A stretch of DNA of 64,000 nucleotides from a virus (IMGVR_UViG_3300047157_000171); one strand, 5' to 3'; positions 2,380 through 61,080 are shown, numbered from the stretch's first letter. Program-made: numbers and translations. The notes: generated by a model not told the origin, from the letters alone.

Positions 2380-3288
2380 ATGGCAACAGGTAATTACGGA
2401 ATAAAGAGACCAGCAGATGTTACACCTTCCGATGTGGAGGTTTTTTTACATTATGCTTCAGATAGAGATTCGAATACGGCACCAGTGTTTAAAAAATTAA
2501 ATGCTAGTGATATTTTGTCACCTGTTTTCCATAACGATGTGACAGGTGGTACTCAAGAAACAGAGATGTTAGGGGGTTTATATAACTTAACACTTGAAAG
2601 TGGAGAATTTTCAGATTTAGGGGTGTATAACTTATACATCAGACCAAAAGAAATAAGAACGAATATCACAGATTGTGGTGTGTTATTAACATTACCAAAC
2701 GTTAAGGGGTTGATATTTGACGTATCAAGTATACCATCAGAAGATAGAGGTAAATTTGTGAATAACGGATTGGTTGGGTACAGAATTGAATACTTAGACG
2801 ATAGTGGTAAAAAGATTAGTAACTTCTATAGAGTTATAACGAGTAGTTTTTTCTGTGAACCGATTGTTGCTAATTTAACAAATACAAATCAAAAATCTTT
2901 AAGATATAGATATACGAGTAATCCTACGAGTTTAGTATATTGTACTGTAACTCCGAGTACTGCTCCAACAAATAATCCAAATGAGATTCCATTTATTGGT
3001 GAACCAAACCAAAATGTTATCTTAACCAATACTTACTTTAACCCTGTACACATGGAGGTTGAGTTAGTAGAACACGACGAACAAACATTAGCATACGCAT
3101 TGTATGGTAATCAAACTAAGTCAATTGAAGACGGAATATACACGATTTACGATAAAGAGAATAATATATACAGACAGTATAACTTATTTGAAATACGTGA
3201 TGAAATTAATAATAAATTATATGAGGTCCGTGAAGATAGAATTGATGACATCGACACGTCCAAAGGTTTTGATAATATAGCGAATTAA
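2380..3288 (+). CDS. Hypothetical structural protein (tail/baseplate region)
   Basis: 302 aa; TATTTATA upstream; TAATG-coupled to the 2112-aa gene. Confidence 0.55.
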   Translation: MATGNYGIKRPADVTPSDVEVFLHYASDRDSNTAPVFKKLNASDILSPVFHNDVTGGTQETEMLGGLYNLTLESGEFSDLGVYNLYIRPKEIRTNITDCGVLLTLPNVKGLIFDVSSIPSEDRGKFVNNGLVGYRIEYLDDSGKKISNFYRVITSSFFCEPIVANLTNTNQKSLRYRYTSNPTSLVYCTVTPSTAPTNNPNEIPFIGEPNQNVILTNTYFNPVHMEVELVEHDEQTLAYALYGNQTKSIEDGIYTIYDKENNIYRQYNLFEIRDEINNKLYEVREDRIDDIDTSKGFDNIAN

Positions 3289-6200
3289 TGGCAAACATTA
3301 GATTTCCTTCTAACGGTAGTGGTACATTCTCAGATGGTCTTGTAGGGGGTCAGAATACTGAGGGTAATGATTTCACGCAGAAAAACTTTTCTGAAGAAGG
3401 AACTCCTGTTGTTAGAGATACTAAAAGTTTTACAACTTCAGATTTTTCTAAACCAATTTCTTTAGAGGACTTAAACAGTGAGGAATCGATTAAAGAGGTT
3501 AGTAAACTATTTGACCAATCATTAAAAATAAAGTTTAACACTGAAAAGGGGTCCAAAGATTTGTTTGGTTCTGCTTTCTTAAGAGCTAAGGTTGCGGTTG
3601 AGAATATCGCAAACACATTTCCAGCGTCTTTAAGAGTGTTTAAAACAACAACCGACGCTCAGACCGTTGATACGGCATATGACGTTGTAAACAATCTACA
3701 ATTTAATACCACGACCTTTAAAATACCATTAAGAGCGATTAGAAATCCATTAGGGATTGAATATAGTAATATTGGTTTAAAAGTTTTCGATGGACAATAT
3801 GATTCTGATAGAAACTTCGCTAAAGAATTTACAAAATATGTTTTATTGTTTTCGGGTGTTGAATATAAAATTAAAAAGGTTTTATTACCAGAAGACAGAT
3901 ATAATGGTGAACTATCAATTACTGTTCACGGAAAACCATTTACAGGTTCAACACAGGAAGAATTCTACATTAAGTTAAACGACATCTTATTTGAGAAGAA
4001 GTTTGAACTAATGGACGATTTTGAACAATTATTATTAGATAGAGAGAACGTTCCATTATACGAGGCTAAGTTTAAAGTCCCTAAAGAAACGAGTGACGGT
4101 AGTTTGTATTTTGGTGATGAAAAGATAAAATGGGAATTGTCCGATGACTTTAACATTGTAGTTGAAGGGGATAAATTTGAAAGATATTTAGAGAAGTTAT
4201 TTGAAACGTGTGAAGTTATTGATAACTACAAGGCGAATTTAATTGCTCGTTTTTTAAGTACGGCTTCTTTACAAGAGTTTGATACGGAAGGTCAAAAAGT
4301 TAAGAAAATATTCCAACTATATGGTAGGTTTTTCGATGATGTAAAGAAATTCATAGACAATATTGCGTATATGAACAATGTTACGTATGATAAGATTAAT
4401 AACGTACCCGATTTACTATTAAAGAACTTGGCTGGGTTATTAGGATTGGATGTGATAACCTCAATTACGGACCGTAACATCGAAGAGTACTTATATAAGA
4501 AAAAAGACAGTCAGTTTGATGGGTTAACAAAAGGAAAAACACCATTTGAGACTGACATTGAAATATATAGAAGAATAATATTAAATTCGGCGTACCTATT
4601 CAAATCTAAAGGTACGAGAAAACCCCTTAGATTCTTATTGAGTTTTATTGGGGCACCTGAATCATTTGTTGAGATAAACGAATACGTTTATAAGGTTATA
4701 AACCGAATTGATTACGATAAGTTTTCTGAAAAATTAGATAACGTTATTGATGGTGAGTGGTTTGAATCTGACGTAGACTTCAAAACGATAAAAGTTTGGA
4801 GTGAAATTAAAGAGGAATGGTTAGATAAGTCGGATTTCCAAAAGAAATATCCAAATGTTGAAATAGACGTATTAGGGTATTTAGAGAATGGTCAACTACC
4901 TGACGGTGAGAATCATGGTGATGCTTATATTTTAGATAAAGAACTGATTAGTGTTGAAGTACAGAAATCGGGTGGGGTATACAATGTTGATGACTATCCA
5001 ATAGAGAGAGTTGGTACTTCAGACAATTCAATACCTAAGACTCCTACGATAACTAACGACTACTTCTTCCAAAAGGGTGCTGGTTGGTTTGAAAGGACAG
5101 ATTCACATAAGTCTGTTTCGGTATTGGATGAAGAAAGGTCTGATTTGACAACTTCACCAAAAACAATTAAGACAAAATTTGAAGATTTCACTTATGGTGA
5201 GAAATTCTATGATAGATATAAAAATTTCCCAAACTTCGATGATGGTTGGGAGTTAAAGGCTGACATCGACAATAAGAAGTCAGATTCAGACACAAACAAG
5301 TTTATATTAAACAGAAAGAACGTTGATATATTCCTTAACCCTGGTCGAGCGGTGTTATTTGATTTTGTAAGAACATATCAAAAACACTCATTATCGTATT
5401 CAGGTGTATTATTAAACAATTTAACATTTGCTCAATTCTCTGAATATGGTTTTTGGAACGGAGTTGAAGTGGGTAAAGGTAAGTACGGAAAGAAATATTG
5501 GGATTTAATCGAATTATTTAAGGATTACTATGAAAGTGGGTTAGGTAAGGCGTATGATTATGACTTAACGTATGCGTACTTAAACAAAATTAGTACATAT
5601 TGGATACGTTTAGTTGAACAGTTTATACCGGCAACTACTTTATGGTTTACTGGTGAAAAAGTTGAGAACCATAATCTACATAGACCAAAGTTTAATTGGG
5701 AAGAACCGTGTAGAAACGATGTTATGTCATTAGACTTATCATTGGCGAAGACATTATATGAGACATTAATTGACTCATTAAAAAAATATAAGAATATACC
5801 TGACTGTTACGAAAGATTATATCGTTATGGTAATTGGTATTTACAGGTAAAAATAAACGACAAAATATACCAAATAGGGGGTAAAGAGTGGACACATTTC
5901 TTTACTTCGACTGAGTCTGATAAGATGGGTTCGTGTAATTTGGATAATGCTCAACCTGGTAGTCCTGACACGTGTCCACAATACGACAATCCGATTTATA
6001 TGTTATGTGATTTTGAAACATACGTAACGTGTTATCCTGATGAATGTAAAGATTTTGTGACCACTATTGTTCAGATGTTGTCACAAATATCTAAAGACAT
6101 ATATAGAGATGAGATTGCTGATAAAGTTAGTGATTGTGATTTTTTATGTGATAACGACGATGGATTGACGTATGTCGCTGACACAGTATTTGGTTCTACT

Positions 6201-9200
6201 ATAAAGACGACTAGTCCAGAGGTTGAAGGGTTAAGTGCTTTTGAGATTGAAGGATTTAAAGATGGTGAGTTTTGTTATGATTGTCATAACGAGATAAAGT
6301 TAATAACCAATAGTTACTGTGGAGAATGTTTCGATATAGATTCGTTAGAAATAGGGATGAAAGTTATTATTAATGAGGGTGAAGGACAAGATGACTGTAA
6401 AGACAGATGTTTTGTGTTGGAGAACATTCCGTTTAGTATTGACCAAAGTCAGTTCGGAGGTGTTCACTATGACGTAAATTACCCTGACCATCATATAGAT
6501 ATGTTAGACCCGAGGGGTACTGTATTTTTAACTGAAAAGTTTGAAGTTGTTAAATGCGTGGACTACGATAAAGTATATCATGGGACGTATCAGTATGTCG
6601 GTGGGTTAGACACAATAGACAGGTTTCCTGTGTATAAACACATAACTGAAGACATTTATCTTTCGTGTTATCCTGATGCGCCTGAATCGGTTAATGGTGA
6701 CTTTATGTTTACTGAAGGACCTAAAGGTTCGTATACTCAGATATATGGTAAATTATCGGATAAAAACTTATTAGACTTCACAAACGTATTCACACATTCA
6801 TTAGAATGGGAAATTGACGACTGTATAACAGTTGATGATTTAGAAGAAGACCAAAATGTTATCAGACACCGTTATGCTACGGGTGATAGTATTGGTATTT
6901 GTGATAGAGTTAATGACGATGGGTTTGATTATGTGAAAATATGGTTACATGGTGGGACTTTTGAAGCTCAAGACGGTACCACTTTACCTTATGATATGTT
7001 CTTTGATTGTAAAGAAGATTTGGTTGAGGGAGAAACTATATGGTATGACGAAGCTGGTGATGTTTTTATAGTTAAGATTAAATCAGGAGAGAATAGGTTG
7101 ATACATGCTTATGACCAATCGGGTGCTCCGATACACATATATTTAAAAGAAAGAAACACCGTGTTGGTGGGTCTTGATTTTGAAACGGACTTAGAAACTA
7201 TCGACGAATATGGTGGTTACGGTCAATATGGTGGTTACGGAGGTTATGGTAGTTACACTTCTTACGGTGGTTACGGTCAATATGGTGGTTACGGAGGATA
7301 TGGTGGTTACGGAGGGTATTTCTGTTACGGAAACGAATATCTTTTTTATTCAAATATAAATCCTTATTGTATTGGTAGACTTGATTATGAGATAAGACCT
7401 GAGTGTCAAGGTTATTTAACGGATACTGAATTTTATAGGGTTAAAGGAGAAACAATACCATACGAAATAACTATTGATGAGGTAATTGTCGGTGAAAATG
7501 TTGAAACAGTTAGGGTTCAGGATATTAATGTCGGTGATTTAATTATCGCTGCGAGTCCTAATTACGGAGAAATGGATTTCTGTGATTACTCGGAGTTCCA
7601 ATATGGGAATGAAAGTATTGTGTGTAATTACACAAAAAACATTAAAATGGTTCCTGTGATGAGTACATCATGTGGGAGAATATATAAATACATTAATATT
7701 AATGAAGGTAGGGTTAAAGTGGAATTCCATCATAATATTTTAGTATTAGAGGATTTAAACAAAACGAATTCAAACGACTTATTAACAACGTGTTATACTG
7801 AAGCACCTACAAAACCAATTGGAACGATTTACAACTTAGACGGGACACCATCACAGGTGTTTTATGATAATGAATATCAGATAGTTGGTAAACCGGCTAA
7901 TGAGATTAGTATCGGTGATTATATAATAACAACAGAAGAGTGTGGTGTAATTGAAGTAAAGAGTTTGGTTTATGATGATTACTGTGATGAGGGTCTGTTT
8001 AATGACAAGTATCAAATTAAGTTTGATGAGGATATGTTTGCGTGGTATAGACCTAAAGACGGATATGATACAATATATATCAACGATAAATGTGTTCCTT
8101 ATTGTGAGTTAATATGTTGTGATGAAATAGAGATGTGTATTGACGACATAAGTATTAGTGGTATTTGTATTGACGATATAAGTTACGTTATTGGTGATGT
8201 ACCAACAACAACTACATCAACTACAGAGGAGGTTACAACAACCACAACTACTAAGGATAGACGTTACTACGACTACTTCAACGACAGAGGAGCCGTTACA
8301 ACAACCACAACTACTGAAAAAGACGTTACAACTACTACGACTACAGAAAAACCATGTGTTTGTTATAAAACAAACCCTTATGATGATAGAATGTTTGTGG
8401 TTTACAAAAATTGTGATGGAAATCAGATAACAATAAATAAAACATGTAACTCTACTATCTGTCAGGGGATTGAATTTTCAGCTACGGAAATATTGAGTGG
8501 ACAATCGGAAGTTTTTATTGTTGATTGTGAAGATAAAACAACAACTACTTCTACAACAGAAGAACCGACAACAACGACTAGTACGACTAAGGATATAACG
8601 ACAACGACTAGTACGACTAAGGATATAACGACAACGACTAGTACAACAGAAGAACCAACAACAACGACTAGTACGACAGAAGATAAGACGACTACCACTT
8701 CTACTACAGAGGATAAGACAACAACCACTTCTACGACTAAGGATATAACAACAACCACTTCTACAACAGAAGAGCCGACAACGACTACCTCTACGACTAA
8801 GGATAGGACTACTACTACTTCTACAACGGAAGAACCGACAACAACGACTAGTACAACAGAGGATATGACAACGACTACTTCTACAACAGAAGTTGAACCG
8901 TTATGTGTTTGTATAGAATTTACACATATTTCTACGGGACCTGGAAGACATATTGGGTATTATGACGATTGTGATGGTATTCAGAGAGAGATAATGGTAA
9001 ACCCATTAGAAAGTGAAAAAGTGTGTGGTACCGGGTTAAATATATCAACATCAGATGGTAAATTAATTTACCAAGTAGGTGAGGAATGTGACATTTATAG
9101 AAAATGTCCAAGCGATGAAACGACAACAACGACAAGTTTTAGAGAACCTGACGACCCAACAACAACCACTTCTACAACAGAAGAGCCGACAACAACAACT

Positions 9201-9626
9201 TCAACCACTATGGGTGACGGTGGTTCGGGTCCGATTACAACGACAACAACTAGAGGAAATAATGAAACAACTTATTGTGTTAATTTTGATTGGTTAGGTT
9301 CTCAGGTAATACCACAATCCTCAGGTAAGGCATATGCTGATAGTACAACAGTTAGTCAAATAACTGAATTCTATTTATATGATGTCGCTTGTGGAAATGG
9401 TGATTTTGATACATTAGCAAACGCATTAACCACGGGTTATGGTCTTACGGTTAGTAGAGGTAATTCGACGGCTAACTTTACTCTTAATTCGTTGACAAAT
9501 AATAGTCAAATGAACTATTGGACTTTAGGGGTTACTTATAATTCAGGAACAGTAACACAGGCGCCCGAAGGGTTACCATGTCATCAACCAAATAACTTCT
9601 GTTTCACACAACCAATACTAAGTTAA
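3288..9626 (+). CDS. Large baseplate-wedge/tail protein with YGG repeat, Hint-like region, Cys modules and Thr-rich tracts
   Basis: 2112 aa; LFKSKGTRKPLRFLLSFIG resembles P2 gpI-like baseplate motifs; low-complexity, Cys-rich C-terminal half. Confidence 0.65.
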   Translation: MANIRFPSNGSGTFSDGLVGGQNTEGNDFTQKNFSEEGTPVVRDTKSFTTSDFSKPISLEDLNSEESIKEVSKLFDQSLKIKFNTEKGSKDLFGSAFLRAKVAVENIANTFPASLRVFKTTTDAQTVDTAYDVVNNLQFNTTTFKIPLRAIRNPLGIEYSNIGLKVFDGQYDSDRNFAKEFTKYVLLFSGVEYKIKKVLLPEDRYNGELSITVHGKPFTGSTQEEFYIKLNDILFEKKFELMDDFEQLLLDRENVPLYEAKFKVPKETSDGSLYFGDEKIKWELSDDFNIVVEGDKFERYLEKLFETCEVIDNYKANLIARFLSTASLQEFDTEGQKVKKIFQLYGRFFDDVKKFIDNIAYMNNVTYDKINNVPDLLLKNLAGLLGLDVITSITDRNIEEYLYKKKDSQFDGLTKGKTPFETDIEIYRRIILNSAYLFKSKGTRKPLRFLLSFIGAPESFVEINEYVYKVINRIDYDKFSEKLDNVIDGEWFESDVDFKTIKVWSEIKEEWLDKSDFQKKYPNVEIDVLGYLENGQLPDGENHGDAYILDKELISVEVQKSGGVYNVDDYPIERVGTSDNSIPKTPTITNDYFFQKGAGWFERTDSHKSVSVLDEERSDLTTSPKTIKTKFEDFTYGEKFYDRYKNFPNFDDGWELKADIDNKKSDSDTNKFILNRKNVDIFLNPGRAVLFDFVRTYQKHSLSYSGVLLNNLTFAQFSEYGFWNGVEVGKGKYGKKYWDLIELFKDYYESGLGKAYDYDLTYAYLNKISTYWIRLVEQFIPATTLWFTGEKVENHNLHRPKFNWEEPCRNDVMSLDLSLAKTLYETLIDSLKKYKNIPDCYERLYRYGNWYLQVKINDKIYQIGGKEWTHFFTSTESDKMGSCNLDNAQPGSPDTCPQYDNPIYMLCDFETYVTCYPDECKDFVTTIVQMLSQISKDIYRDEIADKVSDCDFLCDNDDGLTYVADTVFGSTIKTTSPEVEGLSAFEIEGFKDGEFCYDCHNEIKLITNSYCGECFDIDSLEIGMKVIINEGEGQDDCKDRCFVLENIPFSIDQSQFGGVHYDVNYPDHHIDMLDPRGTVFLTEKFEVVKCVDYDKVYHGTYQYVGGLDTIDRFPVYKHITEDIYLSCYPDAPESVNGDFMFTEGPKGSYTQIYGKLSDKNLLDFTNVFTHSLEWEIDDCITVDDLEEDQNVIRHRYATGDSIGICDRVNDDGFDYVKIWLHGGTFEAQDGTTLPYDMFFDCKEDLVEGETIWYDEAGDVFIVKIKSGENRLIHAYDQSGAPIHIYLKERNTVLVGLDFETDLETIDEYGGYGQYGGYGGYGSYTSYGGYGQYGGYGGYGGYGGYFCYGNEYLFYSNINPYCIGRLDYEIRPECQGYLTDTEFYRVKGETIPYEITIDEVIVGENVETVRVQDINVGDLIIAASPNYGEMDFCDYSEFQYGNESIVCNYTKNIKMVPVMSTSCGRIYKYININEGRVKVEFHHNILVLEDLNKTNSNDLLTTCYTEAPTKPIGTIYNLDGTPSQVFYDNEYQIVGKPANEISIGDYIITTEECGVIEVKSLVYDDYCDEGLFNDKYQIKFDEDMFAWYRPKDGYDTIYINDKCVPYCELICCDEIEMCIDDISISGICIDDISYVIGDVPTTTTSTTEEVTTTTTTKDRRYYDYFNDRGAVTTTTTTEKDVTTTTTTEKPCVCYKTNPYDDRMFVVYKNCDGNQITINKTCNSTICQGIEFSATEILSGQSEVFIVDCEDKTTTTSTTEEPTTTTSTTKDITTTTSTTKDITTTTSTTEEPTTTTSTTEDKTTTTSTTEDKTTTTSTTKDITTTTSTTEEPTTTTSTTKDRTTTTSTTEEPTTTTSTTEDMTTTTSTTEVEPLCVCIEFTHISTGPGRHIGYYDDCDGIQREIMVNPLESEKVCGTGLNISTSDGKLIYQVGEECDIYRKCPSDETTTTTSFREPDDPTTTTSTTEEPTTTTSTTMGDGGSGPITTTTTRGNNETTYCVNFDWLGSQVIPQSSGKAYADSTTVSQITEFYLYDVACGNGDFDTLANALTTGYGLTVSRGNSTANFTLNSLTNNSQMNYWTLGVTYNSGTVTQAPEGLPCHQPNNFCFTQPILS
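7209..7331 (+). repeat. (YGG)n coding microrepeat
   Basis: YGGYGQYGGYGGYGSYTSYGGYGQYGGYGGYGGYGGYFCYG; near-identical 42-nt blocks at 7209 and 7263. Confidence 0.95.
8205..9255 (+). repeat. Mucin-like Thr-rich tandem repeats, 30-nt/10-aa unit (TTTTSTTEEP, TTTTSTTKDI)
   Basis: About a dozen units at 8540-8890 plus shorter tracts on both sides. Confidence 0.95.
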
Positions 9627-9691: not shown

Positions 9692-10786
9692 ATGGGAAAT
9701 ATTAACGATACTAATAACAGGTTAGCCACAGACACTCCAGATACTACTACAACTACTACCACAGGTGGAGTTTCGGTTACGTTTAGTAGTCCTAGTAATG
9801 GACCGTGTAATTTAACATTTACCCCTGATTGTGGTGGGGTAACGACTAATAATAATACATCTAGGGTTGCTACTGACACGCCTGATACACCTACCGTGAC
9901 AATACTGGGTATTAATTTCCCTTACACTTTTTATCCTTCAGAACATGGAGTTGATGATATTTTTGGTACATATACGTTTAATTGTGGTGGTTGTGAATAT
10001 ATAAGAAACATAGAGAGAGTGTGTAACGATAATGATATATCATATACAGTATTAGGTTCTTCTGTTACGACAACAACAACAGAGGATGTTACAACAACTA
10101 GTACGACTGAAGATGTAACAACGACTAGTACGACTGAAGATGTAACAACGACTAGTACAACTGAAGATGTAACGACTACAACCACTTCGTCAGGTTGTAA
10201 AAATTATCTGTTAAAAGCTGATGACCAATTTACGGAGTTTAGATATATTGCGTGTGGTGAAACAAACTACACAACTGTAGGTCTTAATCGAGACACTAGT
10301 AGAGTGGTATGTTCAGAAAATATACCAGTAGTTACTGTTGGTTCGGATAATGCTGAAGTGATTGATACGGGTATAAGTTGTACTGAAGACCCAACAACAA
10401 CGACTAGTACGACTACGGAGATAGAGACGACTCGTTTTTATATTTCAGCAGGAAAACCAATACTTGGGGTGTATGAAGAAGGAACGAACGAAGGTACTGG
10501 GTTCTGTGACAACACATACTTATTATCGGGTGCCCTTTGGGTGGTTGGTAATTTAACACAGACTTCATCTTTACTTAATAAAACAGTATACACCAATAGT
10601 GATATGGATACTTTCATACCTGTCGGATATTATTACGTACACGGAAGTCCGGGTTACCCTAATGGTACCTATGGAGGAGCGGTACCAGGTCAGCAACACT
10701 TAGCAATAAGGGTAGACGCGAATGGTCTTGTTGGTACTGTTGTTAGTCATAATTGTGGAGACCAAGGAGGAGGACAAGACCTTTAA
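9692..10786 (+). CDS. Thr-rich, Cys-module virion-associated protein (paralog of 10807-12114)
   Basis: 364 aa; TTTSTTEDV repeats; N-terminal block shared with the next gene. Confidence 0.65.
   Translation: MGNINDTNNRLATDTPDTTTTTTTGGVSVTFSSPSNGPCNLTFTPDCGGVTTNNNTSRVATDTPDTPTVTILGINFPYTFYPSEHGVDDIFGTYTFNCGGCEYIRNIERVCNDNDISYTVLGSSVTTTTTEDVTTTSTTEDVTTTSTTEDVTTTSTTEDVTTTTTSSGCKNYLLKADDQFTEFRYIACGETNYTTVGLNRDTSRVVCSENIPVVTVGSDNAEVIDTGISCTEDPTTTTSTTTEIETTRFYISAGKPILGVYEEGTNEGTGFCDNTYLLSGALWVVGNLTQTSSLLNKTVYTNSDMDTFIPVGYYYVHGSPGYPNGTYGGAVPGQQHLAIRVDANGLVGTVVSHNCGDQGGGQDL
10066..10190 (+). repeat. 27-nt/9-aa tandem repeat (TTTSTTEDV)
   Basis: About four copies of acaacgactagtacgactgaagatgta. Confidence 0.95.
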
Positions 10787-10806
10787 AAATATAAAAAATA
10801 CGAGAT

Positions 10807-12114
10807 ATGTCTAATATAAACGAAAAAGAAAACAATAACGGTAGTATCAATAATACGTCTATTGATAGTAATGGGAATGGTGATTTAGCTGCTACTGATA
10901 CTACAACAGTTAATGGGAATGGTAGTTTAGACGCTACTGATACTACTACAGTACAACCTTCAACTCAAACGGTTAGGTTTGAACGAATGAGTAATGGTAA
11001 ATGTGATTTAACATTTACCCCAACGTCTACAACATCTACGACTAATAATACGTCTAAGGCCGCTACGGATACGACTGATACGACAACTACACAACCTAAC
11101 AGTGTTAGTATCCCCAACGTGTCTTTTCCTTACGAGTTTGACCCTTTAGACCATGGGTTTAATAGTGTAAATGGGACATATACGTTTGATTGTTGTGGAT
11201 GTCCTTATGTGTTCGTTATCGATGGTGAAGATAATTCTGTAACAACTACTACTACTGAAGAGGTTACAACAACGACAACTAGTAAAGACACTGACCCAAT
11301 AACGACCACAACTACTACTGAAGAGGTTACAACAACGACAACGACTGAAGATGTGTGTGATAACTGTACTACGGTTAGGGTTCGTAAAAATCCGTTATCG
11401 ACTAATGTTAGTTTTGATTATATAGATTGTGATAACAATAGTCAGTCTTATACCTTCCAAACTAAGGTTGCGGTTATTGATTTATGTGTGTGTACAGGAA
11501 GTATACCAAGTAGTGATGACTATACTGTTGAATTTATCGAAGAATGTACAACAGGATTACCGGTATTAACCTGCGATTTATTACAATTCACAGTTAATGA
11601 TGGGGAGAATGGAGAACTTGTTAGTTTTAATAATGGAAGTGGATTATTTATACCGGCTCAGGTAACACCTATTCAATATAATTTAGGTGTTGGAACCTAT
11701 ACTGTTAGTGTTACAGTACCAGATGGATATAGTAACGCAGGTGATACTTTAGAATGTGTGAGTGATGAGGTTATTGTATCTCAAGGTGGTGGTGATACCA
11801 CGACAACATCGACAAAGGGTTCATCTAATGCGTTTTGTGCTAAGGTAACATATGGACCTAACAGTCCGAATACGCTACAAACGCCACAGGGTGGAGAGAT
11901 ATTGGAATTTCAAATAAACCAGATGTTTACATATTCTAACGAAGATGGGGGAGGATTCTTTAGAATATGTACTGACAATGGAGCGTTCTATGTGGTAGAG
12001 AATAATTCGGTGAGAGTAATTCAAGAGAGTGACGATATTGATATTGAATATAATACGGATGATAGATGTACTACTGATGGTTCTGGAAATATTGACTGTG
12101 TACAAAGAGTTTAA
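10807..12114 (+). CDS. Thr-rich, Cys-module virion-associated protein (paralog of 9692-10786)
   Basis: 435 aa; SNGKCDLTFTP...FPYEFDPLDHG...GTYTFDCCGC matches SNGPCNLTFTP...FPYTFYPSEHG...GTYTFNCGGC. Confidence 0.65.
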   Translation: MSNINEKENNNGSINNTSIDSNGNGDLAATDTTTVNGNGSLDATDTTTVQPSTQTVRFERMSNGKCDLTFTPTSTTSTTNNTSKAATDTTDTTTTQPNSVSIPNVSFPYEFDPLDHGFNSVNGTYTFDCCGCPYVFVIDGEDNSVTTTTTEEVTTTTTSKDTDPITTTTTTEEVTTTTTTEDVCDNCTTVRVRKNPLSTNVSFDYIDCDNNSQSYTFQTKVAVIDLCVCTGSIPSSDDYTVEFIEECTTGLPVLTCDLLQFTVNDGENGELVSFNNGSGLFIPAQVTPIQYNLGVGTYTVSVTVPDGYSNAGDTLECVSDEVIVSQGGGDTTTTSTKGSSNAFCAKVTYGPNSPNTLQTPQGGEILEFQINQMFTYSNEDGGGFFRICTDNGAFYVVENNSVRVIQESDDIDIEYNTDDRCTTDGSGNIDCVQRV

Positions 12115-22985: not shown

Positions 22986-23927
22986 ATGAGTGAAAACTTA
23001 GACACAGATTTATTATTATCGTTAGTTGAGGATGTTTTAGGTGAATACCGTAAACACAATGACGGACAGGGTCAAATATCGTTTGACTGTCCTACCTGTT
23101 CTTATGATATAAAAGGATTAGATGATGGTGACGGAAAAGGTAACTTGGAAGTTAACTATCATCGTAATGTGTTTAAATGTTGGGCGTGTTCAGAAACACA
23201 CGGTACACATGGTTCGATATATAAGTTAGTCAATATGTGGGGAACCCCATATCAAAAGAAACAACTTTCTTTAGTTATGCCAGACACCTTTATGGATAGA
23301 GGTGAGATTAAGTATGAGGTTGTTAAACTACCAAAAGAATATGTTAGATTTAAAGATGCGACTGTTGGGTTAAAGATGACTCACCATTACAAATACGCAT
23401 ATAACTATCTGAAAGGTCGTGGTATTAGTGACGAGGTTATTGACAAACACCATATGGGTTTTTGTTATGACGGACCGTACTCGGGTAGAATTATTGTTCC
23501 TTCCTACACTCAGGATATGGAGTTAAACTTTTTTGTGTCAAGATTATATGGTAATGGTTTCTTAAAATATAAGAACCCTAAAGCCTCTAAAGACACGTTA
23601 ATCTTTAACGAATATTTAATCGATTGGAATAAAGACATATATATTTGTGAAGGTGTCTTTGATAGTATATTCTTACCTAACTCAATACCGTTATTGGGTA
23701 AGTTTATAAATGATTATCTATGGGGTCGACTTTACGATGACGCAAAAGGTGATATAATTATATGTTTAGACGGTGATGCTTGGGCAGATGCTGAAAAACT
23801 ATATTATAAACTAAATGGTGGTAGACTTTACGGAAGGGTTAAGGTTGTTAAACTACCTGAAGATAAAGACATCGGTGACCTAAGAGGTGTGTTACCTGAA
23901 GGTTCGGTGTTAGAATTAGAAAGATAA
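22986..23927 (+). CDS. DNA primase (Zn-binding plus TOPRIM domains)
   Basis: CPTC/CWAC Zn site; ICEGVFD; CLDGD. Confidence 0.85.
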   Translation: MSENLDTDLLLSLVEDVLGEYRKHNDGQGQISFDCPTCSYDIKGLDDGDGKGNLEVNYHRNVFKCWACSETHGTHGSIYKLVNMWGTPYQKKQLSLVMPDTFMDRGEIKYEVVKLPKEYVRFKDATVGLKMTHHYKYAYNYLKGRGISDEVIDKHHMGFCYDGPYSGRIIVPSYTQDMELNFFVSRLYGNGFLKYKNPKASKDTLIFNEYLIDWNKDIYICEGVFDSIFLPNSIPLLGKFINDYLWGRLYDDAKGDIIICLDGDAWADAEKLYYKLNGGRLYGRVKVVKLPEDKDIGDLRGVLPEGSVLELER

Positions 23928-23937
23928 AAAATAAGAT

Positions 23938-24627
23938 ATGATACATCCAGAAATTTACAGTTATTTTGATGATAAGGAGGCTTGGAAAAGAAAGTATATG
24001 AGACCTGAGGCTTTATCAATGGAGTGGGATATGATGTTGGAAGAAGTCGGTCCTGACGTATTCCAATTCCCATTATTTAAAGAAGAGTTATGTGCTAAGT
24101 TAATTGAAGAAGCTGAAGCGACACAATCGTGGACACATAAGAGACATGCGTTTTATCCCACTACGGATATGTTAGTGGAGACCTTTGGGTTTGAAGAGAT
24201 ATATCATGAGATAATGGATGAATATATTATGGGAGCAGCAAGACACATTTACCAATTAAATGGTCAGAATTGGGACCAAGGAAATGTATATTCCGAGAAT
24301 TTTATGATACGTTATTCACCTGAAGAACAGGGACATTTATCACTACATTATGACCAATCGTCAATATCGTGTAACGTGGCGTTAAATGACGACTTTGAGG
24401 GTGGTGGTACGTATTTCTCAAGACATAAGGTATTGGCGAAAGCTAAAGGAACGGGTTATGTTACATTTCATCCTGGTCAGATAACACACAAACACGGAGG
24501 GATGCCGACAAACAAAGGAACTCGATATATTATTGTTTCATTTATGAATGATGATAAAAATAGAGAAGACCACATTAATGATTTAGAAAGATTTGCTAAC
24601 GAAAACGGATTCTATAATGATAAATAA
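23938..24627 (+). CDS. PLOD-type lysyl hydroxylase domain (2OG-Fe(II) dioxygenase)
   Basis: HYD...H...R triad; NFMIRYSPEEQ, FEGGGTYF, FHPGQITHKHGG and TRYIIVSF match the LH domain of PLODs. Confidence 0.85.
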   Translation: MIHPEIYSYFDDKEAWKRKYMRPEALSMEWDMMLEEVGPDVFQFPLFKEELCAKLIEEAEATQSWTHKRHAFYPTTDMLVETFGFEEIYHEIMDEYIMGAARHIYQLNGQNWDQGNVYSENFMIRYSPEEQGHLSLHYDQSSISCNVALNDDFEGGGTYFSRHKVLAKAKGTGYVTFHPGQITHKHGGMPTNKGTRYIIVSFMNDDKNREDHINDLERFANENGFYNDK

Positions 24628-25396
24628 GATAGTACATTTCTCAGATTTACATTTAAGATTATATCAATATCATGCTCAGTATAAAGAAATATTGACTGAT
24701 ATGTTACAACAATTTAAAGACGAGGAACCTGACCGTATAGTTTTTACTGGTGATTTAGTACATTCAAAAAATCAAATTACTCCTGAACTTATTGATGTAA
24801 CAAGGTGGGTATTAGATGAATGTTCTAAAATTGCGAGAACTGTATTAATAATTGGTAATCATGATTTCTTAGAAAACAATATGGATAGGATGGATTCAAT
24901 CAGTCCTATTTTAGATTCTATGAATAATGATAATATTGATTATTATATGGATAAGGGATTATATGAAGATGAGAATGTGGTGTGGGTTGTGTATTCGTTA
25001 AGGACACATAACGAACCTCCTGTTATTGACAGAGTTGAAGGTAAGAAACATATTGGGTTATTTCACGGACCAGTGCATGGATTAACGACTGACGTTGGTT
25101 ATGAATTTTCAGAAGGTTATGACCCGTTTAAATTTAAAGGTTGTGATTTGGTATTGTGTGGTGACATACATAAAAGACAGATATTTGATATTCCTGAAGG
25201 TAAGGCGTATATGGTCGGTTCGACAATACAACAAAACTTTGGGGAGTCAGTTTCAAAACATGGGTATGGTACCTACTATATAGATAAAGATGAATATTCG
25301 TTTACGGACTTAGATAATAAGTCACCGTTCTTACAATTTAAGATTACGGATATTGAGGACATTGAGAATGGGAAAGAAGTTTTGCTTAACGCTTGA
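24617..25396 (+). CDS. Mre11/SbcD-like metallophosphoesterase nuclease
   Basis: SDLH, GDLVH, GNHD, FHG and GDIH motifs; start reassigned to ATG at 24617. Confidence 0.9.
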   Translation: MINKIVHFSDLHLRLYQYHAQYKEILTDMLQQFKDEEPDRIVFTGDLVHSKNQITPELIDVTRWVLDECSKIARTVLIIGNHDFLENNMDRMDSISPILDSMNNDNIDYYMDKGLYEDENVVWVVYSLRTHNEPPVIDRVEGKKHIGLFHGPVHGLTTDVGYEFSEGYDPFKFKGCDLVLCGDIHKRQIFDIPEGKAYMVGSTIQQNFGESVSKHGYGTYYIDKDEYSFTDLDNKSPFLQFKITDIEDIENGKEVLLNA

Positions 25397-26255
25397 TAAG
25401 AACGTTTTAGATTTTTGTAAATTAAATGACATTGAAGATGTTAGGGGATTTGCTATAAAATGTTTTGAAAAGGGTCTGACTATAGAGAAGTATGGTGAGA
25501 CACCTTTACTTATGCCTAAAGAAATACAGACGGTAATCAAAGAAGTGGAGAAAGAGGTCATTAAAGAGGTTGAAATACCTGTTGAGGTGGTTAAGGAAGT
25601 TAAAGTAGAGGTCCCTGTTGAGAAAATAGTGGAAAAGATAGTTGAAAAACCTATTGAGGTGATAAAGGAAGTCATTAAAGAGGTACCAGTCGACAAAATA
25701 GTAGAAGTGGAGAAAGAGGTAGTGGTTTATAAAGAAAGACCTGTAGAAGTCGTAAAAGAGGTTGAGAAGATAATTGAAAAAGAAGTCCCAATAGAGAAAA
25801 TTAAAGAAATTGAAGTAATTAAAGAGGTCTATATAACGGATGACGAACAGGTTGAGGAACTTGGTGATAAAATAACACAATTAGAGAAAGAAAATAAGGA
25901 TTTGTCACAAAAAGTGATTAAATTGATGACAATTCCACCTAAAATTGTGGAAAAAGAAATACCGATTGAGAAAATTAAAATAGTCGACAGGGAAGTCCCT
26001 GTTGAAGTAATAAAAGAGGTTGAGAAAATAGTTGAAAAACCTATTGAAGTGATAAAGGAAGTCATTAAAGAGGTAAAAGTGGAGGTTCCTGTTGAAAAAA
26101 TCGTCAAGATTAAGGATAACTCTGAAATAGAAAAATTGACTAAACATAATAAAGAATTAATTGAGTCATTAGCTAAATATGACGAAATGTTTAGTAAATT
26201 TGAACAGAAAATAAGCGTTAAAAAATCAAAAAGAGATAATTTATATGATGAGTAG
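25368..26255 (+). CDS. Val/Ile-Glu-Lys repeat protein
   Basis: (EVIKEV/EKIVEKP)n; start probably ATG at 25368. Confidence 0.75.
   Translation: MGKKFCLTLDKNVLDFCKLNDIEDVRGFAIKCFEKGLTIEKYGETPLLMPKEIQTVIKEVEKEVIKEVEIPVEVVKEVKVEVPVEKIVEKIVEKPIEVIKEVIKEVPVDKIVEVEKEVVVYKERPVEVVKEVEKIIEKEVPIEKIKEIEVIKEVYITDDEQVEELGDKITQLEKENKDLSQKVIKLMTIPPKIVEKEIPIEKIKIVDREVPVEVIKEVEKIVEKPIEVIKEVIKEVKVEVPVEKIVKIKDNSEIEKLTKHNKELIESLAKYDEMFSKFEQKISVKKSKRDNLYDE
25641..26074 (+). repeat. 44-bp near-identical direct repeat inside the VEK-repeat gene
   Basis: gttgaaaaacctattga(g/a)gtgataaaggaagtcattaaagaggt at 25641 and 26031. Confidence 0.9.
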
Positions 26256-34083: not shown

Positions 34084-34824
34084 ATGAAGATTGATAGAGT
34101 TTACGTCATCACAATGGATATGAGTGATGAATACAAAGATGAGTTATTTGAGAGAGTGTTAAATTTACCACTACCTTCAAATACACCTGTTGAGTTTAAA
34201 CAAGGATTTCCCGGTAAGGATTTATTGGAAAGACCTGAAGACTTTCCTGAGTATCGTTTATACCCACATTGGAACCTTAACAATCCAGAGGGTTGGTGGT
34301 GGTGGCAGAGACCAGCGTTATCAGGTGAAGCGGGTGGTATGATATCACATACAATGTGTTGGGAAGATGCGTATGAAAATGGGTATGAGAATATAATGAT
34401 TATTGAAGATGACTTTACAGTGGAAGAACCTATTGATTGGGGTATCTTTAATGAACTTGACGGTTATGAATGGGATTTATGTTTAATGGCTCACAATTCA
34501 TTACACGAACATTTTTCAGATATTATGAAACCTTTAAACATTGGTAGAGAACATTTTATTAGACCAACGTTCTTTTACAATACACATACCTATATACTTT
34601 CTTCGGGGGGGATTCAGAAATTGGTTGAGGACCATTTAGATGTGTTAAAACAAAATATTATTGTATCTGACGAATTTTTATCGGCGGTTACATCATCACA
34701 TCCGAGACCTGATTTGAGAGAGATGTACATAACTAATATGTCAGCGGTGGCGACAAAGGTTAATTATACAGGACAAACTCGAAGTGAAGGTTTGGGTAAT
34801 TCATTAACGGAGACTGAAAAGTGA
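34084..34824 (+). CDS. GT25 glycosyltransferase (COLGALT/LgtB-like)
   Basis: GEAGGMISH..CW, IIEDD, WDL, YNTHTYILS..G..KL, DEFL....SHP. Confidence 0.8.
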   Translation: MKIDRVYVITMDMSDEYKDELFERVLNLPLPSNTPVEFKQGFPGKDLLERPEDFPEYRLYPHWNLNNPEGWWWWQRPALSGEAGGMISHTMCWEDAYENGYENIMIIEDDFTVEEPIDWGIFNELDGYEWDLCLMAHNSLHEHFSDIMKPLNIGREHFIRPTFFYNTHTYILSSGGIQKLVEDHLDVLKQNIIVSDEFLSAVTSSHPRPDLREMYITNMSAVATKVNYTGQTRSEGLGNSLTETEK

Positions 34825-44526: not shown

Positions 44527-44700
44527 ATGGATACATTAACGAAAATTAAAGAATTAACTGAGGTATTATCTTATGATTCTCAGAAAGCGATTGAGAAAGG
44601 TAATAAAAGTGCCGCTACAAGAGCTAGAAAAACGGCACAAGAGATAAAAAATCTTTTACAAGATTTGAGAAAAGAGGTTTTAGACGCAACAAGAAAATAA
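44527..44700 (+). CDS. Histone H1-like Hc1-family small protein (not in the ORF track)
   Basis: 57 aa: MDTLTKIKELTEVLSYDSQKAIEKGNKSAATRARKTAQEIKNLLQDLRKEVLDATRK; KGNKSAATRARK signature. Confidence 0.8.
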   Translation: MDTLTKIKELTEVLSYDSQKAIEKGNKSAATRARKTAQEIKNLLQDLRKEVLDATRK

Positions 44701-46312: not shown

Positions 46313-47119
46313 ATGAATAATTATTACAAAATTTTAGGATTAAGTAAAGACGCAAGTCAAGAGGACATTAAAAAGTCTTATCGTAAACTTTCTAAAAAAC
46401 ACCATCCTGACATGGGTGGTGATGACGAAATGTTTAAAAAGATTAATGAAGCTTATAGTGTGTTGGGTGATGAGAAAAAAAGAAAAGAACATGATAATCC
46501 AAGACGTAGTTTTGATGATATATTCTCGTCAGGTTTTGGTTCTGATTTTATGGAAAGTATGTTCAATCAAGGTAGGTCTCGCAGATATCGAGGTTCCGAC
46601 ATAAAAATTGACTTAACTATCACGGTAAAAGATTCTATGATGGGGGGTGAAAAGGAAGTGTCTTATTATCGTATGACTAAAGATTTCAGAGAAGAAAGAC
46701 GTAGTATAAAGATTAATATACCACAGGGTGCAGACGATGGTAATCTTTTCAGAGTTTCAGGTGGTGGTAATCAAGGGGAGTCCTCACCGGGAGATTTAAT
46801 TATAATTATTAATATAGGTTCAGATGGTGTGTATTCAAAATCAGGTTTCAACCTTTTTTATAACTTAGAGTTGAACCCTTTAGAGATATTAACAGGTAAA
46901 GAGGCTACGATTGATTTATACCACAGTAAGATTAAAGTAAATATCCCATCGTGTGTTGATATGAATAAACAAATGAGGGTTAAGGGTAAAGGATTTAAAA
47001 CACGAAGAGGTTTTGGTGATTTGTTTATTACATTTAAAGTAAAAACACCAAAAGAATTATCTGAATATGAATGGAGATTAGTTGAACAACTAAAAAAAGG
47101 AGATAATTTTAGAGATTAA
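46313..47119 (+). CDS. DnaJ-class chaperone (J domain plus C-terminal domain, no Zn finger)
   Basis: YYKILGL...KHHPD...FKKINEAYSVL; G/F region; PGDLII; RVKGKG. Confidence 0.9.
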   Translation: MNNYYKILGLSKDASQEDIKKSYRKLSKKHHPDMGGDDEMFKKINEAYSVLGDEKKRKEHDNPRRSFDDIFSSGFGSDFMESMFNQGRSRRYRGSDIKIDLTITVKDSMMGGEKEVSYYRMTKDFREERRSIKINIPQGADDGNLFRVSGGGNQGESSPGDLIIIINIGSDGVYSKSGFNLFYNLELNPLEILTGKEATIDLYHSKIKVNIPSCVDMNKQMRVKGKGFKTRRGFGDLFITFKVKTPKELSEYEWRLVEQLKKGDNFRD

Positions 47120-50301: not shown

Positions 50302-51708
50302 ATGAAAAACAGGTTAACTTTAGTAACGGTTGCGACTCATAAGACGCATGAGTTAGATAGGTTTATTGAGTCCGCTAATTATCACGGATATGACTATGTT
50401 ATATTAGGATTAGGGATGGAATGGACCGGTGGTGTTGCCGATAATGGTCGGTTAGTATTCCCCGGTGGAGGAATGAAAGTGAATCTTCTAAAAGATTATT
50501 TATCCACATATGTGGGGTCGAATAGTGATGTTATACTTTTTACAGATTCTTACGATGTTGTATTCAACGAAAAACCCGATGAGTTATTAAGTAGATGGAA
50601 CGGTAATGTATTATTTACTGCGGAAAAAACTTGTTGGCCTGACAGGGATTTGGAAGAAGAATATCCAAACTCACCTTATGGTTATAAATATTTAAATAGT
50701 GGTGGTTTTATTGCTACAGTTGGTGACCTAATTAATCTAACGGAGACTAAGTGTATGGACCACGACGATGACCAACTATATTACACACTAAAGTTTTTAA
50801 ATGGTGATAAGATTAATTTGGATTATAATTTAGATATATTTCAAACTCTTAATCAGTCTATTGACGATGTTGAAATACATAATGGTAGAGTATATAATAA
50901 AGTGACTAAAACGTATCCTATTGTTATTCACGCTAATGGAGGTGTTGGTCCAAGAACTTATTTAAACAAATTATATAACGATATGAGACAACCAGACCCT
51001 AAGTTAAAACAGTTAAATGGTGATGAAAGAGTGTGTTTACAAATGTTATTTGATAAGAAACATACGAATCCATCAATTATGGTTGAAAGTCTTTCTTACT
51101 TAACCTATGATAAAAGATTGATTGATTTATCGTTTTATAATAATGACAAAGAAAATCAATGGGCGATTGAGAACTACATTAAAAATAATGGAGATAAATA
51201 CAACTCAATCACACAGGTTTATGATGAAAGTAAAGGGGTTTATGAGTTAAGAGAAATGTCGTTTAAGGAGTCTACAGGATATGATGGTGATTATGTATTA
51301 CATAACGATTCATCATTTATTATAAAAAACAAGGATACAATTCAGTTATTAATGTCTGAGGGTAAGGATATAATCTCACCGATGATTAATACTGAACAAA
51401 CGTTTAACTCTAATTTTTGGGGTGGTGTTTCAGACGATGGGTATTATTTAGAAAGTTATGACTATCACGATATTAGAACGTACAATAAAAAAGGAACTTT
51501 TGTTGTTCCATTTATTAGTGGTGTGATAATGTTCAGTAAAGAAATCTTAAAGACTGATTTATTTTCAACTATGTTTAGTGATTTAGATAAAGAGATACTA
51601 AATTACTACAATGAGGACCATATGGTTGTGTTAGCTAATACTATCAGAGATAAGAATCTGTTTATGTATATAACCAATAAAAGATATTACGGAAAATTCT
51701 TTAATTAA
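50302..51708 (+). CDS. PLOD-type glycosyltransferase plus accessory domain (procollagen GT-like)
   Basis: LVTVAT, LGLGMEWTGG, GGGMKV, FTDSYDV, AEKTCWPD, YLNSGGFI, DDDQLYYT, IHANG, SNFWG. Confidence 0.88.
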   Translation: MKNRLTLVTVATHKTHELDRFIESANYHGYDYVILGLGMEWTGGVADNGRLVFPGGGMKVNLLKDYLSTYVGSNSDVILFTDSYDVVFNEKPDELLSRWNGNVLFTAEKTCWPDRDLEEEYPNSPYGYKYLNSGGFIATVGDLINLTETKCMDHDDDQLYYTLKFLNGDKINLDYNLDIFQTLNQSIDDVEIHNGRVYNKVTKTYPIVIHANGGVGPRTYLNKLYNDMRQPDPKLKQLNGDERVCLQMLFDKKHTNPSIMVESLSYLTYDKRLIDLSFYNNDKENQWAIENYIKNNGDKYNSITQVYDESKGVYELREMSFKESTGYDGDYVLHNDSSFIIKNKDTIQLLMSEGKDIISPMINTEQTFNSNFWGGVSDDGYYLESYDYHDIRTYNKKGTFVVPFISGVIMFSKEILKTDLFSTMFSDLDKEILNYYNEDHMVVLANTIRDKNLFMYITNKRYYGKFFN

Positions 51709-51709
51709 A

Positions 51710-51742
51710 TTTGGACTACAAAGAAAAAAAGGCTTATCTTTG
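51710..51742 (+). promoter_or_regulatory. Bacteroidota housekeeping-sigma promoter
   Basis: TTTG-N21-TATCTTTG. Confidence 0.7.
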
Positions 51743-51769
51743 TATTGAACAAAAAGAGAAATAGAAATT

Positions 51770-52579
51770 ATGGCAGACTTATTAAAATATCACAAATCGT
51801 TACCTTTAACAGAACAAGAAATCTTAGACAGAGCACCATCTGTTTTCGCAACAGAGGCTTCAGGTCACGTTTCAGAAAAATATACGTTTATTCCAACAAC
51901 TCAAGTTATTAAGGACATGGAGGAGTTAGGGTGGAAAGTATATTCGGCAGAACAAAGAACTGCGAGAACTAAGGTAAGAAATACACATACGAAACACTTA
52001 CTACGTTTTCGTAACGACAAAATTACCGAGGTGTTAGACTGTATCCCTGAGATTACACTAACCAATTCACACGATGGTCGAAACGCATTTCAATTCTATG
52101 TTGGTCTATACAGACCTGATGTTCAAAGTTCTTTCGTAATTCGTCATGAAACTCTAAATGGTTTACGTATCAAACACCAGTGGTACACATTAAATGAGGT
52201 AAGAGAGGTAACACAAAAGGTTATCAATCACTTACCAACCTTAATCGAACAAGTACAGTTACTTAACAATACCAATATTGGTAAGACAGAACAAAGAGAA
52301 TACGCAATGAGAGCCATGATGACACGTTGGGGAAAAGATTACCCTTCAATCCTACACAAAGTGGTTATGAACCCAATTAAAGGTGAAACAGTAACATTGT
52401 GGGATGCTTTCAACAACATACAAAACCATATATTAAACGGTGGTATTACTTACACATTAGCATCTAAACGACAACAAACTGTGAGAGCGATTACAAATGT
52501 CGACTTAAAAATTAAAATCAACGAAGAGTTGTGGGAAGTGACCCAAGGGTATGTCAAACTAAAACAAAAAGTATATTAA
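51770..52579 (+). CDS. DUF932/DUF945-like protein
   Basis: APSVFA...SEKYTFIPT; HLLRFR; LTNSHDG..AFQF; LWDAFN.IQ. Confidence 0.7.
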   Translation: MADLLKYHKSLPLTEQEILDRAPSVFATEASGHVSEKYTFIPTTQVIKDMEELGWKVYSAEQRTARTKVRNTHTKHLLRFRNDKITEVLDCIPEITLTNSHDGRNAFQFYVGLYRPDVQSSFVIRHETLNGLRIKHQWYTLNEVREVTQKVINHLPTLIEQVQLLNNTNIGKTEQREYAMRAMMTRWGKDYPSILHKVVMNPIKGETVTLWDAFNNIQNHILNGGITYTLASKRQQTVRAITNVDLKIKINEELWEVTQGYVKLKQKVY

Positions 52580-52580
52580 C

Positions 52581-52610
52581 AAAAAGGGACCTCGAGTCCC
52601 TTTTTTTATT
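52581..52610 (+). terminator. Rho-independent terminator
   Basis: aaaaagggac-ctcga-gtccc followed by a T run. Confidence 0.85.
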
Positions 52611-52635
52611 CGGTAAAAACTCTTATCTTTACTCC

Positions 52636-54294: not shown

Positions 54295-54884
54295 AAAAAA
54301 CAATGACAATGATTTTATGTATATGTTTTGTCACGGCATTTACATTAAGAGAACAACAACAATATGAGGACGTAACGATAACTACAGACATATATACGGT
54401 ATTATACTCTCAAGAATATGAACAACCACTTAAGTTAGATTATATAGTACAATGTCCTGGTGACGGGGTTAGTAGAAAAGGATTAGATTTCTACGGAGTT
54501 GATAGCGTGAAGACTTCAAACAATAATGATTATCGTAATAATGTTTGGGATAAAGGTCATTTAGCACCAGCAGCTGATTTTAATTGTAGTCGAGAGATGT
54601 TAAAGAAGACATTCTCGTATTTGAATTGTGCACTACAACATGAAGGTCTTAATAGAGGGCCGTGGAGATTCTTGGAAGAATATGAAAGAGAGTTAGCGTT
54701 AGAAAATGACACGGTTAAAGTTTCTGTGATAGTGCATTTCGATAACGATACTGTATTACCAACAGGCGCTAAGATACCATCAGATTTTACTAAGATAATT
54801 ATAGTCAATAATGACACCCTAACATACAAATTCCCAAACAAAAATGTTAGAGGTAAAAAATGGGAAGAATTTCAGGTTAAATAA
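54291..54884 (+). CDS. DNA/RNA non-specific endonuclease (NucA-like) with a signal peptide
   Basis: WDKGHLAPA, TFSYLN, LNRGPW..LE, IPSDFTK; hydrophobic N-terminus. Confidence 0.88.
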   Translation: MKKTMTMILCICFVTAFTLREQQQYEDVTITTDIYTVLYSQEYEQPLKLDYIVQCPGDGVSRKGLDFYGVDSVKTSNNNDYRNNVWDKGHLAPAADFNCSREMLKKTFSYLNCALQHEGLNRGPWRFLEEYERELALENDTVKVSVIVHFDNDTVLPTGAKIPSDFTKIIIVNNDTLTYKFPNKNVRGKKWEEFQVK

Positions 54885-54929
54885 TTTACAACCTTAATAT
54901 TATAAGGTATTATTATAAAAACAAAAATT

Positions 54930-56051: not shown

Positions 56052-56075
56052 TATTTATAGTTAATACTATCTACT

Positions 56076-56888: not shown

Positions 56889-56890
56889 TA

Positions 56891-57442: not shown

Positions 57443-57443
57443 A

Positions 57444-58421: not shown

Positions 58422-58508
58422 TTTTTTTTTAATAAATGTATATAAATTATACTACATTATAAAGGAGGTGATATTTATAAAAGTATTAAAACAGTAAAAA
58501 GATAATAA

Positions 58509-61079: not shown

Positions 61080-61080
61080 T

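Follow-up and report, generated by a model that had tools for sequence, protein, structure and literature searches.

The locus studied here raises the question of what a collagen-type lysyl hydroxylase (LH) domain is doing among the replication genes of a bacteriophage, and on which substrate it would act. The window, that is, the whole stretch of 64,000 nucleotides that was analysed (IMGVR_UViG_3300047157_000171), has a G+C content of ~32% and carries nearly all of its genes on the + strand. The LH gene occupies positions 23938..24627 (+) and encodes, from an ATG start, a free-standing protein of 229 aa, in which a helical segment at the N-terminus precedes the core, a double-stranded beta-helix. 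A DnaG-type primase gene (22986-23927) has its stop 11 nt before the LH start, and the end of the LH gene overlaps the start of a gene for an SbcD-like phosphoesterase (24593-25396). A RuvC-like resolvase is encoded upstream and an Amidase_2 endolysin downstream, so the seat among replication genes described in an earlier, sequence-only reading of this DNA is confirmed. Elsewhere in the window, a sigma-70 factor, ClpP, an SbcC-like ATPase, a Dam-type methyltransferase and tail-fibre-like proteins are encoded, and the source is a large, uncultured marine tailed phage. Its genome may reach ~300 kb, a value extrapolated from a 46-kb IMG/VR relative rated 15% complete by CheckV. When 20 kb of the window were compared with deposited phages by megablast, no match was obtained. 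In seawater metagenomes the phage is abundant; 105 blocks of the metagenome collection are listed with a protein identical in sequence to one of its glycosyltransferases (the GT/AC protein, see below).

Some further genes of the window can be named from contigs that are nearly identical to it. Their precomputed Pfam assignments comprise DnaJ and DnaJ_C for the protein at 46313-47119, a faint J-domain match for a 183-aa ORF at 56891-57442, and S-AdoMet_synt_C as the only match of a MetK-like ORF at 57444-58421. Also, a 57-aa ORF at ~44527-44700 (from L008:4226-4399) matches Hc1, a histone H1-like nucleoid protein, on such contigs. Five presumably structural or fibre ORFs within 9692-12114 and 58509-64000 contain 1.1-2.7% Lys, versus 6-13% in most proteins, which may be a property of surface proteins or an avoidance of off-target lysine modification. 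Metagenome contigs that otherwise nearly match the window (L010, L011, L015) lack one of these low-Lys ORFs (856 aa, 58509-61079) or have something else in its place, which suggests a hypervariable cassette for fibres or host range.

The family assignment of the LH gene product was addressed with several searches. In a phmmer search of PDB sequences, residues 2-204 of the phage LH were aligned with residues 503-714 of human LH3/PLOD3 (E=2.2e-33, 119 bits, ~33% identity), which correspond to the whole LH domain and the preceding helical segment, and residues 6-204 with the LH domain of Mimivirus L230 (6ax6, E=6.4e-27). Besides LH3 and L230, the sole PDB sequence at E<=1 was an antibody fragment (E=0.55). 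The LH3 alignment includes the N-terminal "linker", where IHPEIYSYFDDKEAWKRKY of the phage protein is paired with LHPDLWQIFDNPVDWKEQY. PF25238 and PF03171 were each assigned above the curated cut-off, and PF13640 (P4H) was absent from the Pfam result. A length of 228-229 aa is also found in relatives with 70-99% identity to the phage LH, which points to a free-standing gene. The comparison with a relative having a 99% identical protein gave a dN/dS of 0.037; therefore, the LH gene is under purifying selection. The identification of the ORF at 23938-24627 as a collagen-type LH is far beyond chance. In PHROGs, the protein was assigned to phrog_61, which carries the category "auxiliary metabolic gene". 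A secondary match (E=1.5e-12) was to phrog_2297, whose label "DNA endonuclease" is most likely a mis-annotation of a 2-oxoglutarate (2OG)-oxygenase family; this label could mislead the automatic annotation of phage oxygenases.

Conservation of the catalytic residues was scored in an alignment of 40 free-standing LH homologues. Y126 (codon 24313..24315, +), the predicted ligand of the 2-oxoglutarate C5-carboxylate (L230 Y814), is Tyr in 39/40 homologues and stands 11 residues ahead of the first Fe-binding His, with the same spacing as in L230 (PMC5802723). This His is part of H137-Y138-D139 (24346..24354, +), the HxD half of the Fe(II) facial triad (LH3 H667/D669; L230 H825/D827), which is aligned with "HHD" of LH3 and found in 40/40 homologues. 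By alignment, H186 (24493..24495, +) is the distal Fe(II) ligand (LH3 H719; L230 H877) and R196 (24523..24525, +) the 2-oxoglutarate-binding Arg (LH3 R729; L230 R887), both again present in all 40; in the region of R196, TRYIIVSF of the phage LH is aligned with TRYIMVSF of LH3. In L230, the C5-carboxylate is bound by R887/Y814, and the activity is abolished by mutating the Fe(II)- and 2-OG-binding residues (H825/D827/H877/R887/Y814) (PMC5802723). The sequence-only reading had described a stand-alone domain at 23938-24627 that tracks PLOD3 from its linker to the end of its LH domain and keeps the Fe and 2OG ligands. The ORF proves exact, all the motifs quoted are present in the translation, and both the alignment, linker included, and the ligand set agree with that description.

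The predicted structure leads to the same family. An AlphaFold2 model, built on the alignment of the 40 homologues, had a mean pLDDT of 92.8. With Foldseek, the closest PDB folds to this model were LH3 (E=2e-21, TMq 0.80) and L230 (TMt 0.89), both with an rmsd of ~2 A. After a gap, the next folds were PolD and prolyl hydroxylases (E ~1e-7, TM ~0.5), the P4H structures giving E-values of ~1e-6 to 1e-7, TM of 0.45-0.55 and 14-18% identity. In BFVD, which contains predicted viral structures, the best and sole comparable match was the procollagen-lysine dioxygenase of Megavirus, with a large gap to the next one, and the phage 2OG oxygenases reached TM <=0.65. No TET/JBP, AlkB or thymine hydroxylase was among the matches listed for Pfam, PDB sequences, Foldseek PDB or BFVD. 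L230 forms a tail-to-tail homodimer in which L873 is locked into an aromatic pocket of Y798/Y801/Y831 (PMC5802723). In the phage LH, the lock position is Ile182 (I/V/L/F in 33/40 homologues), and the pocket aromatics are kept as Y105 (39/40) and W112 (30/40), with Ile at position 143. From the alignment, the L230-type dimer contact appears only partly recognisable.

To place the phage LH within its family, homologues were collected in an exhaustive search of 1.84 billion cluster representatives, in which 78 proteins had E<=1e-30. A set of 264 homologues was sorted into architectures by local phmmer with the domains of the window itself; matches that the P4H probe gave to the LH fold were disregarded. 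The free-standing form was the most frequent (111), followed by GT4-GT25-LH (62), GT25-LH (42), PLOD-type GT/AC-LH (38), GT25-GT/AC-LH (6) and GT4-LH (5). GT25 and/or GT4 are fused to LH in 104 of the 264, and such fusions are frequent among relatives with ~45-50% identity. The LH-domain tree (146 rows; IQ-TREE quick search, LG+C20+F+G4) was rooted on one cyanophage oxygenase, and its clades were anchored by domain architecture, or by PDB search in the case of P0197. A PLOD/L230 clade (SH-aLRT 95) contains mostly the GT/AC-LH architecture and includes the L230-like P0197 (E=2e-66 to 6ax6). One named metazoan homologue of PLOD type, the nematode P0215, has the GT/AC-LH architecture; a filter for 70% redundancy kept it out of the tree. 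A larger, microbial clade (SH-aLRT 87) comprises free-standing, GT25-fused and GT4-fused forms, and the phage LH falls within it together with near relatives (SH-aLRT 100), apart from the PLOD/L230 clade. The deep order of the tree is insecure, because it comes from a quick search with a single long outgroup branch and moderate deep support. Judged by its sequence relationships, the phage LH is a true member of the LH family and was not copied recently from an animal or a giant virus. Since it lies outside the experimentally characterised PLOD/L230 clade, its specificity could differ. Relatives were detected in at least 267 viral contigs by a pattern scan of IMG/VR; among cultured or deposited phages (50,697 genomes), the best identity to the phage LH is <=28%. 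The sequence-only reading had named a phylogeny as a check, with a grouping among nucleobase or prolyl hydroxylases speaking against it; the phage LH is found inside the LH family, in the microbial clade, and no such grouping is observed. Together, sequence, fold and phylogeny support the placement among collagen lysyl hydroxylases.

The window also encodes two candidate glycosyltransferases for hydroxylysine. The first, a GT25 glycosyltransferase of 246 aa (34084..34824, +), matches PF01755 above the cut-off (E=3.6e-9) and is a candidate COLGALT-like hydroxylysine galactosyltransferase. At E<=0.1 it matches nothing in the PDB other than human COLGALT1 (four sequences, E=1e-6), and by tblastn it matches the GT25 domain of GT4-GT25-LH fusions with E=1.7e-26. 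The second is a protein of 468 aa (50302..51708, +) with a PLOD-type GT and an accessory domain (GT/AC), which resembles Mimivirus R699 (E=1e-50) and matches PF25342 GT_PLOD (E=3.6e-64). Its residues 4-466 were aligned with residues 15-492 of LH3, that is, the GT and accessory domains (E=1e-56), and both the DSYD metal motif and the poly-Asp loop can be recognised in the alignment with LH3 and R699. R699 is a demonstrated galactosyl-hydroxylysine glucosyltransferase (PMC9546862), and the GT/AC protein is a candidate for this activity. The ORFs at 23938 and 50302 jointly cover residues 15-714 of LH3, and the phage thus appears to encode a "split PLOD" in addition to a COLGALT-like enzyme. In PLOD, the GT, AC and LH domains are on one polypeptide; here, the 229-aa LH and the 468-aa GT/AC are separate ORFs, 26 kb apart. 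"Stand-alone", as the domain had been called, is therefore right for the gene, with the qualification that the GT and accessory domains of PLOD are nonetheless encoded separately in the same window. The in silico evidence supports that candidate enzymes for all three activities of the animal Hyl-Gal-Glc pathway (LH, GT25 and GT/AC) are encoded in the window.

The substrate candidates were found outside the window. An ORF search of the window identified no collagen, that is, no ORF with K-G enrichment or collagen-like G-X-Y repeats. Runs of at least four G-x-x triplets are limited to G-G-Y/G-Q-Y repeats (two runs at 7212-7319) inside a 2112-aa ORF (3288-9626) without Pfam match, and these repeats are not collagen-like; a homologous frame of 1703 aa in the related IMG/VR record G003 has a weak, sub-threshold Collagen match. 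Two genes downstream of LH, a 300-aa repeat protein (25353-26255, +) is rich in Glu/Val/Ile/Lys, with 18% Lys and 1.7% Gly. The ORF that follows the SbcD-like gene, matched by position, has only 184-197 aa in relatives with an 81%-identical LH, and so the repeat tract may expand or contract. This Lys-rich protein was considered as an LH substrate and rejected on its low Gly content, its single K-G dipeptide and its variable length among relatives. Collagens were reached by walking metagenome contigs that encode proteins identical to those of the window. A 101.6-kb metagenome contig is 98.6-99.5% identical to window positions 51081-64000 (L013 98.6%, L017 98.9%, L019 99.5%), and three tandem collagen genes of 938, 971 and 948 aa were found on this contig at window-equivalent positions 73033-81613, ~9 kb past the end of the window. 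Each product matches Pfam Collagen (E=1e-65 to 1e-84) and ends in a chaperone domain of the Peptidase_S74 type. They contain 218-232 G-X-Y triplets each, with Lys at Y in 85/228, 87/232 and 71/218 of them (33-38%) and Pro mostly at X. There are 76-91 G-x-K-G motifs per collagen and ~250 X-Lys-Gly sites over all three. The classical recognition context of collagen lysyl hydroxylases is X-Lys-Gly, with Lys at Y (established knowledge; see also PMC13382579), and by their sequence the three Lys-rich collagens are a very plausible substrate of the phage LH. The LH gene lies ~49 kb from them, among replication and recombination genes, and neighbourhood evidence is thus absent in this particular phage.

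Such evidence is available from a second phage lineage. Among 21 long IMG/VR records with an LH relative, Collagen was found above the Pfam cut-off in 19, including 7/7 of those at least 90% complete, and the two collagen-less records are fragments with LH at the contig end. By coordinates, collagen lies ~2-6 kb from LH in 19/19 records, a spacing that assumes that the contig ends join for G005, G006, G010 and one of the two collagen stretches of G011. Because the 19 records are related to one another, they are taken together as a single further lineage rather than as 19 independent cases. In their collagens, Lys is at Y in 11-35% of the triplets and at X in 0-3%. GT25 was identified in 8/8 of the largest records (87-100% complete), and GT_PLOD in 0/21, a weak absence given that this search had no positive control. 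In one such record, from a T4-like phage (L031:3-3621, IMGVR_UViG_3300025849_002055), the collagen gene is followed by a compact cassette for a P4H-like 2OG oxygenase, then a GT2, then a GT4-LH fusion of 576 aa, and a T4 gp15-like tail gene comes after two further, unassigned ORFs; judging from these domain assignments, a prolyl hydroxylase may also act on the phage collagens there. As a reverse control, 76 viral records with an encoded (G-x-K)5-G run were screened, and weak, partial matches to 2OG oxygenases were found in only 5 of them. LH was identified in 0/21 of the near-complete viral records with such a run; therefore, Lys-bearing phage collagens do not need LH. In other words, LH is a predictor of collagen, but a short G-X-Y run that bears Lys is no predictor of LH.

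The analysis shows that the protein belongs to the LH family, has its catalytic residues intact and is under purifying selection, and that partner enzymes and collagens are encoded along with it. In our reading of the sequences and the structural model, the protein is most probably an active, free-standing Fe(II)/2-oxoglutarate peptidyl-lysine 5-hydroxylase, which would prepare the phage's own collagen fibres for Gal-Glc glycosylation. The substrate, regiochemistry, order of steps and timing of this pathway we infer as follows. The phage LH would bind the new, still unfolded chains of the three ~950-aa collagens in the infected, aerobic bacterial cytoplasm and convert Lys at Y of Gly-X-Lys-Gly into hydroxylysine, in a reaction that uses O2 and decarboxylates 2-oxoglutarate to succinate. 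Next, galactose would be attached to hydroxylysine by the GT25 (34084-34824) and glucose by the GT/AC protein (50302-51708) to give the animal-type Glc-Gal-Hyl, and the modified fibres would trimerise, aided by their C-terminal S74 chaperone domains. The operon-like run of LH with primase and SbcD suggests that LH might be made ahead of the late structural proteins.

The alternative that survives best, still an unlikely one, is that the protein is an active protein lysyl hydroxylase whose target is not the collagen fibres, and instead is another structural protein of the phage or a host protein. Targets other than collagen are the rule for JMJD6 and the ribosomal oxygenases. The LH gene stands beside early replication and recombination genes and not beside collagens, and its relatives on four gammaproteobacterial MAG contigs (44-47% identity) have no collagen gene within 8 kb (4/4), a collagen match above the Pfam cut-off being present in only one of the four MAGs. 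In addition, L230 also hydroxylates lysines of non-helical telopeptides, and the fold therefore tolerates contexts other than the triple helix (PMC5802723). Against a target of this kind, no ORF of the window has X-K-G enrichment or G-X-Y repeats, the repeat protein at 25353-26255 with its one K-G included, whereas in the second lineage collagens accompany LH in 19/21 records and are near it wherever they occur. The co-encoded GT25 and PLOD-type GT also fit a glycosylation of collagen-type Hyl, as the pathway on the phage's own collagens has it.

Less probable still is that the protein hydroxylates free lysine or another small molecule, in a metabolic or secondary-metabolite role, or that it is a catalytically silent structural remnant. 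The roles of many phage 2OG oxygenases are not established and are possibly metabolic (PMC2938197), and the PHROGs category of phrog_61 points in this direction. However, LH3 and L230, both peptidyl-lysine hydroxylases, are by a wide margin the closest folds, the N-terminal helical segment specific to LH is conserved, and the fusions of LH to the protein-glycosylating GT25 and GT4 speak for a protein as the substrate. The retention of every catalytic residue and the strongly purifying selection speak against a dead enzyme. A nucleic-acid base hydroxylase of the TET/JBP or AlkB type, serving DNA modification or repair, is the least probable explanation of all, since the location between primase and SbcD, the "DNA endonuclease" label of phrog_2297 and the presence of a DNA methyltransferase elsewhere in the window are outweighed by fold matches that run from LH3 and L230 to prolyl hydroxylases with no DNA-base enzyme listed, by Pfam and PDB sequence searches that give LH-type families only, and by a tree that puts the protein inside the LH family. 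The position among replication genes is best read as a feature of expression timing rather than as a clue to a DNA substrate, and the earlier preference for protein lysine over a DNA base as the target is supported in silico by sequence, fold and phylogeny.

To our knowledge, Mimivirus is the one viral exception to the view of hydroxylysine, with its Gal-Glc glycosylation, as a hallmark of animal collagens. A phage with a hydroxylase, both types of sugar transferase and three ~950-aa Lys-rich collagens, as their predicted roles have it, runs against this picture. If the enzyme is active, the lysine modification of collagen extends to bacterial viruses, and ideas on how the PLOD enzymes arose in evolution can be put to the test. 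Also, an LH this small, with one domain only, would be expected to fold in bacteria and could serve the production of modified recombinant collagen. A wider scenario, which we regard as possible rather than probable, is that tailed phages make animal-type Glc-Gal-Hyl on collagen fibres hundreds of residues long in bacterial cells, that the microbial and phage LH radiation is the older pool from which metazoan and giant-virus PLOD were drawn, and that collagen lysine modification predates animals.

Comparison with known systems helps to define what the phage protein is. The 2OG-Fe(II) oxygenases of cyanophages and other phages (phrog_61; e.g., Synechococcus phage S-PRM1 and S-CAM9) share the superfamily fold and were the only matches among the 50,697 deposited phage genomes. 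However, their identity is 23-28% over 66-79% of the phage LH, they form a long outgroup branch with TM <=0.65, and they are without the N-terminal segment of LH. The nearest relatives outside the phage's species group are instead metagenomic GT4-GT25-LH, GT25-LH and GT4-LH fusions, including P0083, a GT4-LH protein annotated as coming from a Chromatiales bacterium, with 45-54% identity. They belong to the same clade of the tree, and the GT4-LH form adjoins collagen genes in T4-like marine phages. In these proteins the glycosyltransferases are fused to LH, whereas the phage LH is free-standing and its glycosyltransferases are dispersed.

Human LH3/PLOD3 (LH domain, 6fxk and related; EC 1.14.11.4) has in common with the phage LH the Fe(II) triad and the Arg/Tyr ligands of 2-oxoglutarate, and a comparable X-Lys-Gly substrate is available to the phage enzyme. 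In LH3, however, the GT and accessory domains are fused to LH, whereas the phage has the LH domain alone and the GT/AC gene 26 kb off; LH3 has its site in the ER, in contrast to the bacterial cytoplasm proposed here; and the phage LH is found in another clade of the family tree. F673, part of the aromatic dimer pocket in LH3, is replaced by Ile143.

The Mimivirus system (L230, R699 and R655) comes closest in its overall design, with a virus-encoded collagen LH and virus-encoded collagens, a role that is predicted in the case of the phage. R655 is GT25-like (PMC9546862), and R699, a free-standing GT/accessory glucosyltransferase, has its phage counterpart in the ORF at 50302-51708. L230 differs in being a GT-LH fusion of a giant virus with a eukaryotic host, while the phage LH is unfused, belongs to a tailed bacteriophage and lies outside the L230/PLOD clade. 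In the literature searched, viral collagen hydroxylation is described only for giant viruses (including PMC5802723 and PMC9546862), and no description of a phage LH was found in that literature, which was limited to non-subscription sources. The kind of enzyme is thus already known; what is new here, as far as the sequences indicate, is an LH that is free-standing, phage-borne, proposed to work in the bacterial cytoplasm and drawn from an uncharacterised microbial clade.
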